From: a virus
Lineage: Duplodnaviria > Caudoviricetes
DNA length: 64,000 bases
Reading direction: 5' to 3' (one strand)
Virus record (IMG/VR): IMGVR_UViG_3300030330_005091
Coordinates: 1-64,000 of that record
Part shown: piece after piece, positions 8,117 through 57,483 of the stretch
Layout of the letters: each line of letters starts with the position of its first letter
Numbering within the stretch: position 1 is the first letter of the stretch
Made by a program: the position numbers and the translations under genes
The notes under the pieces: model-generated
Databases searched by the model: none
Seen by the model: the letters and a program-made list of their open reading frames with translations, nothing else
What the model was told of the DNA's origin: nothing

Positions 8117-11100
8117 CTAGTAACTAGAACCTCCACCAGAATTACCACCACTGCCACCACCACCTTGGTTGCCACCGCGGTTGTTACCAAACATTATATC
8201 AGTTCCGGTTCCACCACCAGAACTGCCTCTTGATTTTCCTTTTTTGCCACCTTTTCTCGATGTTGGGATCATTTCTGCTGTTCCAGCTTTCTTTGTTCTC
8301 TTGCTCATTTTACGTGCTTTCTTACTAGCAAACTCTTTCTTGGCTCTGCTTAATTTTGCACCCTTAAGAGAACCAATAGGATTAAATTTTAATACACTTG
8401 ATGCAAACGGCGCGACAACTGGGTTAACCATTTTTTGTAACTTGAGTGTTCCTACTTTTGATTTACTCAAATCAGCCATTTGCATTTCGCCTCTAAGTTG
8501 TGTAAGCTGTGGCATATCGCTGAATAGTATTTCAGAATTAACTTTGATCATCTCAACAAACGAGACATAGTCATATGGCCAGTTGTGAGAGTATCTATAG
8601 GTGTTCAACATCTTAAGATTATCATTAATTGATTTTTGACTGATGTTGAGGGACGCTATTTGTTTAGAGCCTGAATCATCACGTCTTTTTGCAATTTGTG
8701 TGTCTGTTTTATCCCAATAACTATCTTGCCCTTTTTGCTTAACCTTAAAGACCATCCAACGCAATTGTTGGTTTTCTTCTAATGTTTCTTCATTAAGAAG
8801 TTCGGCGTCAATTAATTCATGTGCAATTGATTCATATTGAAATTCTATTTTTTGATATTCTCTTGGTGCTAAGTTCTGCCAGATATATGACAAATCATCT
8901 TTATCAAGCTCATATTTAAATTCAAATATATACATAACAAAAGGATCTACAGCGCCTTCTGGGTTACTAACAAAGTCAAGTTGTGGTGGGAATATATATC
9001 GCTCCATTTTTTGTATTTGCTTACTAATGGAGGCACCGGCAGCTTGCAGTGAGTCGCCAACAGCGCTTCCTATTGCTTTGTTCTTGGCAGCTTCGTATCT
9101 TTGTTTAGGAATTTCAATAAATGATTTTCTATACTTACTTGCATCATTTTGTTGATCAAACCGTTTTGGCTTTTCAATTATGTATGGTATTGCCACAACA
9201 GCCTCACGAAGAGTGGTTTTTTGCTTTATTTTACCAATTTTTTGTTTTAATTTGGTGTCGAATCCTACCAAGTCGGCCAAAGAAAGAACTTCATAATCTA
9301 CAACGCCATCGTTTGTAAAATTATTATATATACTCTTCATATCTTTGACTAAATAATGATTTCGCAGCCAATTATCAGGAATATCTTGAATACCAATAAA
9401 TACTCCCTCTTTGCTACTAGGTATTTTACCAAACTGATGCCACATTCCTTTTGGAGTTGATTCTTGGCTATAATGATGCGGATATGTCACACTAGCTGAA
9501 TTAAAGTTTAGCATTGGAGTTTCAAACTTAGTTCTGATGACCCATCTTTCTCCTACAGTGGTCCCGGGACGGGTTGAGGATACATTTCCAAATTTATCAA
9601 CTTCAACAAACTGCTCTCTTTCAAGACCAAATAAGTTAAAGCTTGATGTTAATTGCATTGAATTTAAGTTAATCTGAGAACCACCATAAGGCAGATAGGA
9701 TATCGGATTTCCATCAGCATCATTGGCATAATCTGGTATAAGTGCGTTTGAGAAACCCGAGGTTGGCCCCCCCAAGTCAACAAAACAACGCCTCGGACCT
9801 GGATCAAATCTCCAACAAACGGGACTAGTTTCAGCCATAATATCTTTTAAGGTATATGTAGAACCAGAATTTGGTCTGAATATTAAATCGACCCAAGCTT
9901 CACCATCATAATAAGGCGGAGTATATGCTGGGTTAATTCCCACATGAGAGTCTAATGCTCCTGATGTTAATCCGCTCAGAACATTTTGCGCAGCGGCGAC
10001 CGGGGGGGTTGTTGGCACTAATAAATGAGCACCTCCACCCGGTCTTCCTTGTAAGTCTGGCCCAAATGCTGACGGCCTACTATACATTGTAAATGTTTCT
10101 GCGAAGCTTGGGTTGTATATTGGATCTTGAGGTATCTCATAATAGGCAGCAGGTGTGTTCGATGCGGCGCCAAGGCCGATATTGTAGGCGCCAGAGAGCA
10201 TAATAGGATAACCGGCGGCTCCTGTGGGTATTGTTCCGCCACCGGAGGTCGCTCCTGCAAAAAGAATCGGCCTTCCGCCATATAAACCAAATGAACTTGT
10301 AAATACACCAGCAGAGTTTGAATAAATTCTACCAAAACCATCAATTTCGTGTTCATATGTTCGAGGTCCAGTTGTGCTTCGGTTTAAAACAACCCTCATC
10401 ATGTAAGTTTCGGTTCCTTTAAATTTAAAAGTATCAGTATTAAGAGCCGATTTTATACTTGTAAATTCTTCGTTTTCAAGGAAAAATGTTGGAACACTTC
10501 CAAAAAAGTTGTTAGCCATTTTTTTATAATCATTTTTGAAATCATTTTTAATAAAGGAAGCGGTGACTGCGTGAGCTTGCATATATGGATTAGCTTCCAT
10601 GTCATAAAAAGATCTATTTGTTAGATATTTTTCAGGCTCCAACATTGTTTCAAAAGGAAGGCGCGTATCAAAAAAGCTGTATTTCGGTTGATAGTCAAGG
10701 GCGCCTTGGGCGGTTACTTGATAAGCAGGATTAAACGTAGTGGTCCACGATGCGGAAGTATTGTAAGTGGTGCCGGTTCTTTGCGCCCTACCATCGTCCT
10801 GATAATCTAACTTAGTTGGATTGGTAACGATTGGATAATCGACAGCCATACCTGATTTTATTGTATTATACAATATGCCTGGAGAGAATAACGTATCAGT
10901 CAACGGCTTAAGAAATCTTGATTTTGATGTGGCATTACCAATTGGTACTCCAAAGACAGTAAATTGTTTTAATCCGGGAGCCAAAACAGACCAAAAAGAA
11001 GAGGTTCCAGGAAACCAAGTGTATGCTGGCAAACCTGAGAATTTTGGACTGGTTGCCATCATATTGTTGACATAAGAATCTTTAAATTCTTCGACCATTT

Positions 11101-53269: not shown

Positions 53270-54604
53270 CTATAAAACTTTTGATGCTAATGTAGCCAGT
53301 TCTGATCTTTCACCTTTTCTAAAGGTAACATGGCCGGCGATTGCATATTCTTTAAAATTTTCTATAGCATGGGCCAAACCATTTGACGTTTCATTAACAT
53401 ATACATTGTCTATTTGCTCAATATCGCCAGTCAAAACTATTTTTGTTCCTTCACCAATACGTGTAATTATAGTTTTAATTTCATGTTTTGTCAAGTTTTG
53501 CGCCTCATCAATTACAATAAAAGCATTGGCTATTGATCTACCTCTTATGTATGTTAAGGCTTCAATTTCAATTTTTCCTTTCTCCATATACATTTCAAGA
53601 GATGTGCGGTCTCCCATCAGAAATTTTAAATTATCTTGAATAGGCATTAACCAAGGTAGCATTTTTTCTTCCATTGTTCCTGGTAAAAAACCTATATCTT
53701 TACCAAGTGGTTGCACCGGCCTTGACACAATCAATCTAGAGTAATGATTATCGTCTGTTCGTAATCCTATCGTTTGTTGGAGGCCGGCAGCAATAGCTAA
53801 CAATGTTTTTCCAGAGCCGGCTCGACCAACCAAAGATACAATTTTAATGTTTGGATCCATTAACATATCAATTGCGAAGGCCTGTTCTTTATTTCTTGCT
53901 TCAATTTTCCAATCAGGCAAGTTCTTATGCACGATATTTTTTAAAGGCTCGTGGTGAGTTTTAAAGCGCGCTAAGGCTGATTTTTTGTCATTAGCATTGG
54001 ATACCATCATAATATATTGGTTTGGATACCATATTCGATCAATTTCGTCTTCGTCAATTGATATTTCTTCGCCCCCATAATATCTATCAATTAGTTGATC
54101 ATCGACTGATTGTATTACAAAACCATTATAAAGTTCTTCAGAAGTAGAAACAGCTCGTTCCGACACATAATCTTCAGCTTTCAAGCCTATAGAATCACAT
54201 ATAACACGCATATTGATATCACGAGATACCATAATTGTTTTTCTGTTTTCACAATTCATTTGAATTGTTTTAGCGGTGGCAATAATTGTGTGATCTGGTA
54301 ATCTAATATCTAAATCGGGCGGAAATATCACTTCTTTCATTGACGAGTAAGATACTACTTTTACAATCCCATATCCTTTATCGATTCTAATGCCTTTTTC
54401 TAAGTTTCCTTTTGTTCTTAACTCATCAAGGATTCTAATAAACTGCCTAGCATTAGACCCTACAGAGTCTTGTCTTTTTTTATGATTATCTACCTCTTCT
54501 AAAACTTTTAGAGGTATAAAAATATCATGATTTTCAAACTTATATAGAGCATTTGCATCAGTTAAATAAACGCTCGTATCTAAAACATAATTTTTTTTAG
54601 CCAT
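53270..54604 (-). CDS. phoH: PIN-PhoH (PhoH2-type) ATPase
   Basis: N-terminal PIN (VLDTSV...E..D..D); Walker A GRAGSGKT, GFLPG, IRGRS, DEAQN, GDIEQID; probable start MAKKNY at 54604. Confidence 0.92.
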   Translation of the reverse strand: MAKKNYVLDTSVYLTDANALYKFENHDIFIPLKVLEEVDNHKKRQDSVGSNARQFIRILDELRTKGNLEKGIRIDKGYGIVKVVSYSSMKEVIFPPDLDIRLPDHTIIATAKTIQMNCENRKTIMVSRDINMRVICDSIGLKAEDYVSERAVSTSEELYNGFVIQSVDDQLIDRYYGGEEISIDEDEIDRIWYPNQYIMMVSNANDKKSALARFKTHHEPLKNIVHKNLPDWKIEARNKEQAFAIDMLMDPNIKIVSLVGRAGSGKTLLAIAAGLQQTIGLRTDDNHYSRLIVSRPVQPLGKDIGFLPGTMEEKMLPWLMPIQDNLKFLMGDRTSLEMYMEKGKIEIEALTYIRGRSIANAFIVIDEAQNLTKHEIKTIITRIGEGTKIVLTGDIEQIDNVYVNETSNGLAHAIENFKEYAIAGHVTFRKGERSELATLASKVL

Positions 54605-54623
54605 GTGGCCTCTGCTTTCAAAA

Positions 54624-54632
54624 ATAAGTAGT
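54624..54632 (-). promoter_or_regulatory. Putative late-promoter variant ACTACTTAT
   Basis: 20 nt upstream of the phoH start; one mismatch from ACTATTTAT. Confidence 0.35.
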
Positions 54633-54648
54633 TGGTTAGTGCTATTCA

Positions 54649-54864
54649 CTAACTATTTTTTAAGGATTTATGACGTGTTGCTATAGCAATTTCTATTTCT
54701 TCAGTTGGTAGATCTAAAGAATCTTTAACCTCCCATAGGGCTTTTTCGATTTCATCTGTGTATTCTATTTCATCATCGACTTCCACTTCAAAAACATTGG
54801 ATTCTTGCTTGAAATAATTAACACGATTTTTAATTACATTATAAAAATTATTAAACATGTTCAC
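54649..54864 (-). CDS. Small hypothetical protein
   Basis: 71 aa, AAGG RBS, preceded by ACTATTTAA (54884-54892). Confidence 0.6.
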   Translation of the reverse strand: MNMFNNFYNVIKNRVNYFKQESNVFEVEVDDEIEYTDEIEKALWEVKDSLDLPTEEIEIAIATRHKSLKNS

Positions 54865-55157: not shown

Positions 55158-55233
55158 TGGAGCCGCCTATCAGACTTGAACTGATGACCTACGGTTTACA
55201 AAACCGTTGCTCTACCAACTGAGCTAAGGCGGC
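55158..55233 (-). tRNA. tRNA-Thr(UGU)
   Basis: GCCGCCT/AGGCGGC acceptor, GCTC-GAGC D stem, ACGGT-TT TGT AA-ACCGT anticodon arm, TTCAAGT T loop, encoded CCA; 76 nt. Confidence 0.96.
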
Positions 55234-55382
55234 GTTATTTTTTCTGTTGTGTTTTCAAGCTTTTGTTGAATCTCAAAAATTGATTGTCCATGCGGTATAA
55301 GATGTGATAAAAACCAAAGATAAACCATCATACCTATCAATACTGACATAAAAGCTTGTAATACTAAATCGCCTACATCCAT
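55224..55382 (-). CDS. Small single-TM hypothetical protein (52 aa)
   Basis: MDVGDLVLQAFMSVLIGMMVYLWFL...; fills the gap between two tRNAs; stop lies inside tRNA-Thr; no clear RBS. Confidence 0.45.
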   Translation of the reverse strand: MDVGDLVLQAFMSVLIGMMVYLWFLSHLIPHGQSIFEIQQKLENTTEKITPP

Positions 55383-55394
55383 ATAGTAGGTAGG

Positions 55395-55487
55395 CTGGAG
55401 GGGAAGGATTCGAACCTTCAAGGTGAACTTTCGTAAATCACCGCCCGGGAAACAGCCGGGTGCGTTTGCCAATTCCGCCACCCCCCA
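55395..55487 (-). tRNA. Atypical class-II-like tRNA, anticodon GUU, 24-nt variable region
   Basis: TGGGGGG/CCCTCCA acceptor + G73; GCGGAATTGGCAAACGC D arm; CCCGG-CT GTT TC-CCGGG; GGTGA/TCACC variable stem; GAAGG-TTCGAAT-CCTTC; no encoded CCA. Confidence 0.85.
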
Positions 55488-55496
55488 AAAATAAAA

Positions 55497-55590
55497 CCGG
55501 TTTTCTGTCTAGAACTAGGATAACCGAAAACCTTTGCCTACGTGACGATCGGCAACCACGTTCCGCTTATAATGCGAGCAGAACAGCGCA
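55497..55590 (-). ncRNA. Candidate structured RNA (pseudoknot plus hairpins)
   Basis: TGCG/CGCA and GTTCTGCT/AGCGGAAC interleaved stems; TTGCC/GGCAA; GGTTTTC/GAAAACC; GC-richer than its surroundings. Confidence 0.4.
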
Positions 55591-55595
55591 GAAGA

Positions 55596-55658
55596 TTATT
55601 TGCAGCAGCAATCACACTCACAAGGTGCAATGCAACCGCAACAGTTACATTTTTTCAT
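55596..55658 (-). CDS. Cys-rich micropeptide MKKCNCCGCIAPCECDCCCK (metallothionein-like)
   Basis: 20 codons plus TAA, 9 Cys, GGAGG RBS 7 nt upstream; below the ORF-track size cutoff. Confidence 0.7.
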   Translation of the reverse strand: MKKCNCCGCIAPCECDCCCK

Positions 55659-55687: not shown

Positions 55688-56164
55688 TTACGCATCAAAT
55701 GTAAGAGTTCCGTTATCAGTTTCTACAGAAACACTCCAACCTGAAATAAAAGGCATTACTTTCATAAAATTTTCATATGGAATTTGAACTTCAGCTGTAA
55801 GAGTAGTGAATCCACGTTTATGGTCATACTTTTCTGTTGAGTATTCAATTAATTCAACATCGTAAAAATTTTCAGTAATTGTATTTGCAAGATATTCTTC
55901 GAATTCATAACTTCCTCTTTCATAATCCTCAAGATAATCTTCAGAGCGAAGATGTTCAATTACATTTCCTTGCCATCGAGTTCTTACATCAAGCCCTGAT
56001 TGTGCTATAAGTGACGCAAATTCACTAACTACCGATGTTTCAGATAAAGCAGTTTCAATTTCTGTTTCGTTAAAATGAAACACATCTGCACCTTCTTCGT
56101 AGCGAAGATTAATCATAGCATTATTGGTCAAATTTAATGATTGTAGCCGCTCTATTGTGTTCAT
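55688..56164 (-). CDS. Hypothetical acidic protein
   Basis: Probable start MNTIERL at 56164 with GGAGG RBS. Confidence 0.75.
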   Translation of the reverse strand: MNTIERLQSLNLTNNAMINLRYEEGADVFHFNETEIETALSETSVVSEFASLIAQSGLDVRTRWQGNVIEHLRSEDYLEDYERGSYEFEEYLANTITENFYDVELIEYSTEKYDHKRGFTTLTAEVQIPYENFMKVMPFISGWSVSVETDNGTLTFDA

Positions 56165-56165
56165 G

Positions 56166-56342
56166 TTATCTTCCTCCAGAATTGCTGCCATCAACGCGCT
56201 CAGTTAGATATTTTACATCGCCAGCAACAGATGTTTTAAACTCTCTCAACTCATTTTGAAGAATATAAATCTGATCAACAAGTTGATTTACTCTTGCTTG
56301 CAATTGTTCTGTTTGTTTTGTTAGTTGTGTTGTTGTAGCCAT
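56166..56342 (-). CDS. Small coiled-coil protein (58 aa)
   Basis: MATTTQLTKQTEQLQARVNQLVDQIYILQNELREFK...; AAGGAG RBS; heptad pattern; not in the ORF track. Confidence 0.7.
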   Translation of the reverse strand: MATTTQLTKQTEQLQARVNQLVDQIYILQNELREFKTSVAGDVKYLTERVDGSNSGGR

Positions 56343-56382: not shown

Positions 56383-56459
56383 TGGCTGCCCCTCGCGGAC
56401 TCGAACCGCGGACCCGCTGATTAACAGTCAGCTGCTCTAACCAACTGAGCTAAGGGGCA
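56383..56459 (-). tRNA. tRNA-Asn(GUU)
   Basis: TGCCCCT/AGGGGCA, G73, CCA; GCTGA-CT GTT AA-TCAGC; CGCGG-TTCGAGT-CCGCG; 77 nt. Confidence 0.96.
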
Positions 56460-56994: not shown

Positions 56995-57483
56995 TTATCT
57001 TTCAGAATGTTGTCCTGTTGAACGAACTGGTGGCACATCAAAATCTCTAACTTTTTTGGCTAAGTCGGAAGAACTATCAACTTTTTCTTCTCCGCCAACA
57101 CCCCACAATAATTCAATTTTTAGTTCTTCGCATACTGATTGTTCTGGGGTATTTGAACGCCCTCTGTCACCACCGTTTGCAAAGTAGGTCGGCCTTAGTC
57201 TTCGTATAGCTTCGCATACTGTTCCATCAGAATCATCTACAGAATCAACAAGAACAACTCCCTTTATAGCATTTAAGATTTCTACTCTTCTTTCCCATTC
57301 CATAAAAACAAAACCTTTTTTACGAAAAAGCCAATCATCTGAATTAGCTATAACTATTACATCTCCATATTGTGCCGCATGTCTAATCATGCGAATATGT
57401 CCAGCATGCACAGGATCAAAACCTCCAGATACCATTACGGTAGGTCTTTCTTTAGTCATAATAATTTCCTTATTTTTTGCCAC
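56995..57483 (-). CDS. HxGH cytidylyl/adenylyltransferase (RfaE-II/TagD-like)
   Basis: VSGGFDPVHAGH, NSDDWL.RKKG, FANGGDR, SSS. Confidence 0.9.
   Translation of the reverse strand: MAKNKEIIMTKERPTVMVSGGFDPVHAGHIRMIRHAAQYGDVIVIANSDDWLFRKKGFVFMEWERRVEILNAIKGVVLVDSVDDSDGTVCEAIRRLRPTYFANGGDRGRSNTPEQSVCEELKIELLWGVGGEEKVDSSSDLAKKVRDFDVPPVRSTGQHSER

Follow-up and report, generated by a model that had tools for sequence, protein, structure and literature searches.

An ocean-phage tRNA gene with the asparagine anticodon GUU, conserved and covarying among its relatives, breaks the bacterial rules for long variable arms and for position 37 while retaining the marks of a tRNA-Asn. We give an even chance to the interpretation that the tRNA functions in Asn decoding after charging by host enzymes, and that its changed body and loop would make it a defence-resistant or pathway-specialised spare.

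The window that we analysed is a stretch of 64,000 nucleotides from the start of a viral record of 195,690 bp, rated complete by CheckV. The whole genome carries eight tRNA genes and a one-piece tmRNA, and its major capsid protein is of the T4 type, the nearest cultured relatives being Rhodothermus phage RM378 (34% identity) and Flavobacterium phages (47% identity). Asparagine accounts for 5.8% of the codons, and AAT is the fourth commonest codon in the phage. The locus contains the following features:

55395 to 55487, minus strand: long-arm tRNA-Asn(GUU), 93 nt, with discriminator G at 55395 (ARAGORN, Rfam, fold, covariation)
56383 to 56459, minus strand: canonical class I tRNA-Asn(GUU), the "A type" (ARAGORN; Rfam tRNA, 68.7 bits)
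55158 to 55233, minus strand: tRNA-Thr(UGU) (ARAGORN; Rfam tRNA, 73.5 bits)
55688 to 56194, minus strand: 168-aa ORF without a known family, which separates the two tRNA-Asn genes and served to anchor the synteny comparison

The strand of the long-arm gene, which an earlier note on this sequence had not given, is thus minus. The canonical tRNA-Asn lies ~900 nt upstream of it and has the loop CUGUUAA, U1:A72, G73 and an encoded CCA; the tRNA-Thr gene lies ~160 nt downstream, and the whole forms one co-oriented cluster with small ORFs in between. No Pfam match was found for the 168-aa ORF. A promoter scan returned only weak promoter-like sites, in numbers not above those of shuffled sequences, and a terminator scan called none. 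A palindrome, GAAAACC/GGUUUUC, with a U-rich run (55488-55515, minus) ends exactly at the first base of the tRNA and is kept in one relative (L003); it may be a terminator or processing signal of an upstream micro-ORF transcript. On the other side, a 52-codon ORF for a small hydrophobic protein (55224-55382, minus) begins 13 nt past the tRNA discriminator and runs ~10 nt into the 5' end of tRNA-Thr. Farther out on the same strand are a PIN-PhoH fusion (PhoH2-type predicted RNA helicase/RNase; 53270-54649, minus), ~500 nt downstream of the tRNA cluster, and the one-piece phage tmRNA (59924-60255, minus), which has the Asn-rich tag ANNNNHFEQRLAA. In most relatives the tmRNA keeps its synteny with the two tRNA-Asn genes, and the tags there read ANNN[LTSN]HF... 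In one contig group a cytidylyltransferase-like gene (PF01467; L056:207-752, minus) ends 5 nt before the long-arm tRNA; in the window, an ORF that is likewise cytidylyltransferase-like and shares the N-terminal GGFDPVH motif lies at 56995-57483 (minus), ~1.5 kb upstream.

ARAGORN called a tRNA-Asn(gtt) at 55393-55487, and the Rfam tRNA model (RF00005, gathering score 29) matched 55395-55487 on the minus strand, full-length from 1 to 71, with 47.9 bits (E 8.5e-8), a cloverleaf score above the gathering threshold. The minimum-free-energy (MFE) fold was the exact five-arm cloverleaf, at -34.5 kcal/mol; its shuffle z-score of -0.93 is modest because the sequence is GC-rich. The parts of the molecule are placed as follows:

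55481 to 55487, minus strand: 5' strand of the acceptor stem, UGGGGGG, pairing with 55396-55402 (CCCUCCA)
55462 to 55478, minus strand: Leu-type D arm GCGG-AAUUGGCAA-ACGC, with a 3-bp stem, A14, A15, G18G19 and A20a
55444 to 55460, minus strand: anticodon arm CCCGG-CUGUUUC-CCGGG, with the anticodon GUU at 55451-55453, U37 at 55450 and C38 at 55449
55420 to 55443, minus strand: variable region, 24 nt (sequence and MFE fold)
55403 to 55419, minus strand: T arm GAAGG-UUCGAAU-CCUUC, with a 5-bp stem (Rfam and homologue alignment)

Every anatomical feature that the earlier note had listed was found when the sequence, the ARAGORN and Rfam results and the fold were read together. The 7-bp acceptor stem contains U1:A72 and G4.U69; the discriminator is G73, positions 8 and 9 are U and G, and the 3' end reads G-C-C-U, so that no CCA is encoded. 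The D stem is formed by G10-C25, C11-G24 and G12-C23, followed by G13.A22. In order, the variable region reads C, GGUGA, UUU, AC, GAAA, GU, UCACC, UU, which gives a 5-bp basal stem (GGUGA/UCACC), a UUU bulge, the AC/GU pairs, a GAAA loop and two unpaired U residues before the T stem.

According to the textbooks, the only bacterial tRNAs with a long variable arm are those of Leu, Ser, Tyr and Sec, and a purine occupies position 37. The window tRNA has the G34 U35 U36 and G73 of bacterial tRNA-Asn, but its 24-nt variable region and U37 stand in place of the class I body and A37 (normally t6A) of that tRNA. Its tertiary signature is that of bacterial tRNA-Leu, with A15:U48, the placement of G18G19, A20a, a 3-bp D stem and a long arm, and its geometry agrees with that of phage tRNA-Leu genes; the A73 of bacterial tRNA-Leu is missing, G73 being found here and in all relatives. 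As for bacterial tRNA-Ser, G73, G2-C71 and C11-G24 are present, and C72, G15:C48 and a single post-arm base are absent. The phages' own tRNA-Ser genes have G15:C48 and one unpaired base after the arm, as against A15:U48 and two such bases in the long-arm tRNA. With its 7-bp acceptor stem and 5-bp T stem, the molecule lacks the geometries of allo-tRNAs and tRNA-Sec (8/4, 9/3, 8/5, 9/4). Among the GatCAB marks that can be read in it, U1-A72 is present and U20a is absent.

Relatives were gathered in four ways: from the neighbourhood of the 168-aa gene, with the tRNA unconstrained; with a T-arm plus acceptor word; with an acceptor plus D-arm word that left the anticodon loop unconstrained; and with a D-arm-plus-loop pattern in metagenomes. 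The alignment of the 36 distinct long-arm relatives, which come from marine viral and metagenomic contigs, has 98.1% of its cells paired. Compensatory double changes were observed in 13 of the 25 pairs, compared with 6.3 in shuffles and 1-4 in slid-partner controls, and they occur in four of the five helices. The acceptor helix is 100% paired, with double changes in 5 of its 7 pairs, and yet pair 1-72 is U-A in 36/36 relatives and G73 is equally invariant (36/36). The loop YUGUUUC is also invariant, including in the sets that were collected without any constraint on the loop. The T stem is 100% paired, with pair 50-64 covarying through G.U, U-A, G-C and A-U, and the basal stem of the variable arm covaries by double changes in 3 of 5 pairs; the variable region is about 17-28 nt long among the relatives, and most copies have a 5' bulge and a GAAA-type loop in the arm. 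In one branch G2-C71 has become C2-G71. Elsewhere the long-arm gene is found within ordinary tRNA arrays, for example in the order long-Asn, Met, canonical Asn, Lys. The earlier note had argued from intact stems against simple decay and had proposed a search of related phage contigs for homologues with covarying stems; that search, as described, found them. From the invariant marks and compensatory changes we judge, on comparative grounds, that the long-arm tRNA-Asn is a real, selected gene and that pseudogene decay is excluded.

The family is widespread in marine metagenomes and looks restricted to viruses, since a scan of 185,579 bacterial and archaeal species genomes with the D-arm-plus-loop pattern gave only three matches, none of which is a tRNA by ARAGORN; these matches (in a Thioclava, a Blastocatellia MAG and a Nitrospina MAG) were taken as chance. 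A search of cultured-phage DNA with the window tRNA and its flanks gave no match. A search of viral contigs with the exact anticodon-arm word returned, besides one true homologue, two contigs (L002 and L004) in which the word is a chance occurrence outside any tRNA.

The most divergent members of the set, with the acceptor sequence UCUGRGG, sit 8-9 nt downstream of a 265-aa ORF that encodes a class IIb catalytic core with no anticodon-binding domain (PF00152, E 8e-17). We observed homologues of this AsnRS-like core (mini-AsnRS) in at least 599 viral contigs, and a U37 long-arm tRNA-Asn follows the gene in 66 of 80 sampled loci, at a distance of 8-9 nt in the four loci measured; all of these tRNAs have U1:A72 and G73, with A or C at position 38, and none has an encoded CCA. 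Cultured carriers of the enzyme-tRNA pair are the Prochlorococcus phages P-SSM2, P-SSM5 and P-SSM7, whose records annotate a "tRNA ligase" and a "tRNA-Asn". A comparative paper lists the cyanophage AsnRS-like gene without analysing it (PMC3037559); in the literature we found only annotation, and no functional study, of the pair, and our searches turned up no account of a phage tRNA-Asn with a class II body.

We compared 33 stand-alone with 44 enzyme-linked tRNAs, segment by segment. The latter were found through the protein and not through the tRNA, and all have U1:A72, G73, GUU and U37. The P-SSM2/5/7-type tRNA shares these with the window tRNA, together with U8-G9, the Leu-type 3-bp D arm, the long arm followed by two unpaired bases, and a nearly identical T arm. 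The differences are in the acceptor (UGUGAGG or UCUGAGG in the enzyme-linked tRNA, UGGGGGG in the window), in position 38 (A or C, as against always C in the stand-alone branch), in the CCA (never encoded, as against 20/33 stand-alone long-arm tRNAs), in the variable region (17 nt, as against 24 nt in the window) and in the setting: the enzyme-linked tRNA lies directly downstream of the enzyme gene, whereas the genome of the window is without that gene. A PF00152 profile search and tblastn of this complete genome gave no AsnRS-like enzyme, and no Asn synthase or CCA-adding enzyme was found in it either. The gene upstream of the window tRNA is the unrelated 168-aa ORF, not a class IIb core, and five other contigs with a window-type tRNA, two of them at least 98% complete, also lack the mini-AsnRS. 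The window tRNA has all the sequence features of the mini-AsnRS-paired family, namely the Leu-type body, U37, U1:A72, G73 and GUU, and its genome, which is complete, has no AsnRS-like enzyme; on this reading of the sequences it is a branch that stands alone within a group of Leu-bodied tRNA-Asn genes with U37 in marine phages. The two branches thus offer a direct comparison, with and without enzyme, for an unexplained enzyme-tRNA pair of abundant cyanophages.

The 168-aa gene is found at 44 homologous, syntenic loci, in the order tmRNA ... canonical tRNA-Asn (A) - 168-aa gene - second tRNA-Asn (B) - (Gly) - Thr. The canonical copy is kept upstream of the 168-aa gene in the relatives and is conservative, with the acceptor UGCCCCU and the loop CUGUUAA. 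The B copy always has U1:A72, G73, GUU and the acceptor UGGGG(U/G)G, and occurs in three bodies:

B1: class I tRNA-Asn of normal build, 76 nt
B2: 77-nt tRNA in which position 8 is A, the D arm departs from the standard and the loop is YUGUUAC
B3: the long-arm form, as in the window

The B2 form, of which at least 10 distinct sequences are conserved (examples are L016:4588-4664 and L039:4540-4616), has A8 instead of U8, A or G at position 9, C38, and a D arm that is able to form five pairs and has no A14. In a tree built from the 168-aa protein, loci with B3 fall among those with B2 and B1, and well-supported branches force at least three switches; for instance, L016 (B2) is sister to L010 and L011 (B3) with support of 100/97. 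The three forms behave as interchangeable cassettes that have been swapped repeatedly, and, being interchangeable, they would have the same job, the decoding of asparagine codons; this is the strongest indirect argument for that function. The repeated swapping of three bodies at one locus suggests an arms race over tRNA-Asn in ocean phage-host systems. With the canonical tRNA-Asn adjoining, the arrangement also fits the earlier remark that the long-arm gene is not needed for ordinary supply. A 20-codon micro-ORF with nine cysteines lies between the 168-aa gene and the long-arm tRNA (55596-55658, minus) and is kept in many sister loci; a link between it and the long-arm tRNA was rejected, for it co-occurs with B3, B2, B1 or no second tRNA.

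The description of the tRNA as chimeric, which the earlier note had offered, is a fair one because its segments resemble different sources. The acceptor and anticodon stems, C38 and the frequent encoded CCA resemble B2, the two stems also resembling the class I second tRNA-Asn of sister phages, and U8-G9, the D arm, U37, the long arm with two trailing unpaired bases and the T arm resemble the enzyme-linked branch of cyanophages and tRNA-Leu in general. The D arm of the window tRNA is also a generic tRNA-Leu D arm; among viral contigs, 68 of the 78 tRNAs that carry its D-arm word are tRNA-Leu. Recombination as the origin of this mosaic is not proven by the sequences, and recent recombination with the phage's own tRNA-Leu(UAA), which differs in D arm and variable arm, is unsupported.

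Other long-arm tRNAs were seen along the way. Two viral contigs encode long-arm, Leu-bodied tRNAs with the Asp anticodon GUC (L156:1436-1531 and L178:3615-3707, both minus), which have U1:A72, G73, U37, C38 and a residue other than U at position 33 (loops C-A-GUC-U-C and C-G-GUC-U-C); no AsnRS-like gene was found in the flanking sequence examined, and the two appear to follow the plan of the long-arm tRNA-Asn with an Asp anticodon instead. At L144:1241-1335 (minus) there is another, separate tRNA-Asn(GUU) with a long arm, 95 nt in length, which has the usual CUGUUAA loop and an encoded CCA but differs in its D arm; it had no match among cultured phages. Since it is separate, long arms on phage tRNA-Asn seem to have arisen repeatedly. 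Further viral contigs, L184 (at 9328-9413 and 9548-9635), L203 and L219, have tRNAs of class II length whose anticodons are those of Gly (ACC, GCC), Pro, Arg and Phe (AAA). Possibly, long-arm bodies with class I anticodons are a wider phage phenomenon.

The identity elements of bacterial tRNAs (PMC9976931) can be compared with these observations. Asn identity depends on the anticodon and G73, with a contribution from modified A37, and U1-A72 is a determinant for GatCAB. A73 is required for Leu identity, and both LeuRS and TyrRS have G73 as an antideterminant; the elements of Ser identity are G73, C72, G2-C71, R4-Y69, C11-G24, G30-C40 and a large Ser-oriented arm; and the determinants for AspRS include C38, G10 and G73, with t6A37 as an AspRS antideterminant in yeast (PMC9976931). 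U37 is the one departure of the long-arm tRNA from bacterial Asn identity. Because of the LeuRS and TyrRS antideterminant, charging with Leu or Tyr would be unlikely in spite of the Leu-type core. We favour asparagine as the probable amino acid because the identity marks are conserved, normal tRNA-Asn genes are equivalent occupants of the slot, the sister branch has an AsnRS-like partner, and it would be costly to miscode 5.8% of codons. The loop, with C38, G10, U1-A72 and no t6A37, would also be compatible with a route through AspRS and GatCAB.

From these considerations we infer the following sequence of events. The long-arm tRNA, which keeps Asn identity (GUU, G73, U1:A72) on a class II, Leu-type scaffold with U37 and C38, would be transcribed together with the neighbouring genes and tRNAs, and host enzymes would trim it, add the CCA and make Asn-tRNA, by AsnRS directly or by a non-discriminating AspRS plus GatCAB; what allows for this second route is that position 38 is C, position 37 is not A or t6A, and U1:A72 never varies. 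The charged tRNA would then decode AAU and AAC, codons for which the codon usage of the phage shows a demand, and the benefit to the phage would be a spare Asn decoder that escapes recognition by host tRNA-directed nucleases, or by other factors, tuned to the normal shape and to the U36-A37-A38 loop. A conservative copy together with a re-bodied copy that keeps its identity marks is the pattern expected from an arms race over tRNA-Asn recognition. The strict invariance of U37 in both branches, however, looks like a positive requirement more than plain escape from a nuclease, and the scaffold may have evolved for a dedicated AsnRS-like enzyme, not for host AsnRS, the largest branch being the one that travels with such an enzyme.

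Two further points count against this reading: class IIb synthetases approach the tRNA from the variable-arm side, so that the long arm might hinder AsnRS, and the pyrimidine at 37 should weaken the A-U36 codon pair. A bolder proposal, which we consider unlikely, is that the loop (C38 and no t6A37) and U1:A72 divert the stand-alone tRNA from AsnRS into AspRS plus GatCAB, so that it is orthogonalised. If this were true, the phage would make Asn-tRNA from the aspartate pool, unseen by factors that recognise normal tRNA-Asn, and, taken with the enzyme-linked branch, there would be a modular, phage-borne, private system for Asn decoding.

Several other explanations must be weighed against a spare Asn decoder. 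As in the enzyme-linked branch, the tRNA may be a scaffold for a partner other than host AsnRS, either a host enzyme or one that we did not recognise, and thus the substrate of a tRNA-linked reaction, such as amino-acid or metabolite synthesis on tRNA or modification, with decoding secondary or absent. We hold this to be unlikely. The spread of the class IIb core through at least 599 viral contigs, with the tRNA behind it in 66/80 loci and the cultured P-SSM2, P-SSM5 and P-SSM7 among its carriers, speaks for such a partner, as does the fact that U37 never varies in either branch, which suggests that it is needed for some specific recognition; but this complete genome and other near-complete ones do without the enzyme, the stand-alone branch has regained ordinary traits (CCA in 20/33, an acceptor like that of the class I second tRNA-Asn), and the slot is interchangeable with ordinary-looking tRNA-Asn genes. 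A role as a non-ribosomal aminoacyl donor, which the earlier note had also raised, is conceivable. Mistranslation, in the form of Ser at Asn codons, had been suggested in the earlier note, and can be extended to charging by AspRS without amidation, which would place Asp at AAY. The Ser determinants G73, G2-C71, R4-Y69, C11-G24, G30-C40 and a large variable region are indeed present, C38, G10 and G73 are AspRS determinants, the antideterminant t6A37 (known from yeast) cannot form on U37, and there are precedents in the nematode nev-tRNAs (PMC3333845) and in allo-tRNAs (PMC7609411). Nevertheless, A72 and not the Ser determinant C72 is found in every relative (36/36), the tertiary marks (A15:U48, two post-arm bases) are of the Leu and not the Ser type, one branch has C2-G71, the sister branch is linked to an AsnRS-like enzyme, the slot is otherwise held by ordinary tRNA-Asn genes, and miscoding of codons that make up 5.8% of the proteome would be costly. 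We therefore do not favour the Ser proposal, and consider mistranslation of either kind decidedly unlikely.

That the RNA is a decoy, uncharged or poorly decoding, which titrates a host nuclease directed at tRNA-Asn or another tRNA-binding defence protein, appears to us very unlikely. The authors of the AriB study raise over-expressed viral tRNAs as possible competitive inhibitors (bioRxiv 10.1101/2025.02.04.636281), and the RNA may have kept its anticodon yet be unable to decode because of the odd loop; a decoy, however, should mimic the loop and shape of the target, and the long-arm tRNA departs from both, while U1:A72, G73 and the frequent encoded CCA (20/33) point to aminoacylation. We give almost no credence to a degenerating duplicate or recombination scar without function: the missing CCA of the window copy, the unusual position 37 and the modest z-score of the fold would suit it, but they are set against 36 homologues in which four of five helices show compensatory changes and the functional positions do not vary, in a family widespread in marine metagenomes. 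The structurally disguised spare of an essential tRNA, kept by phages, is thus the reading that we prefer. These genes would provide a natural test of how much of the tRNA body AsnRS, AspRS/GatCAB, EF-Tu and the ribosome tolerate, and of whether phages re-body essential tRNAs against tRNA-cutting defences; they are also scaffolds of possible interest for orthogonal translation systems.

A defence system that cuts tRNAs offers an analogy for such a spare. AriB of PARIS cuts E. coli tRNA-Lys, tRNA-Thr and tRNA-Asn(GUU) beside a shared U36-A-A-U39 sequence, and the T5 variants of these three tRNAs neutralise AriB (bioRxiv 10.1101/2025.02.04.636281). The canonical copy in the window reads U-A-A-U-C at this place and the long-arm copy U-U-C-C-C, and all B forms are without U-A-A-U-C. 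By this analogy it is plausible that the long-arm tRNA is a nuclease-resistant substrate, the motif being one from E. coli. Avoidance of the PARIS motif was not upheld as a general rule in these phages, many of whose tRNA-Thr genes retain U-A-A-U-C.

The long-arm tRNA can be compared with known tRNAs as follows. With canonical class I tRNA-Asn, as in the window neighbour and T5, it shares GUU, G73 and presumably the codons read, and with the neighbour also U1:A72; the canonical tRNAs differ in their class I body, 5-nt variable loop, 4-bp D stem, A37 and A38, and that of T5 in G1:C72. The T5 tRNA-Asn was accordingly rejected as a long-arm precedent, being a 78-nt class I tRNA. The T5 tRNAs that permit escape from PARIS, and other phage tRNAs with variant anticodon loops (eLife 2023, PMC10264068), are likewise extra phage copies of a targeted tRNA with an altered anticodon stem-loop. 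Those escape variants have a few base changes on a class I body, whereas the long-arm tRNA has its whole core replaced and a pyrimidine at 37, and the likeness is one of analogy. The nev-tRNAs of nematodes (PMC3333845) and the allo-tRNAs of bacteria (PMC7609411) also combine a long arm with the anticodon of a class I amino acid. However, nev-tRNAs are charged with Leu, whereas the long-arm tRNA keeps Asn-type marks, and allo-tRNAs have an 8/4 or 9/3 acceptor/T geometry with Ser or Ala identity, in contrast to the 7/5 geometry, G73 and U1:A72 of the phage molecule.
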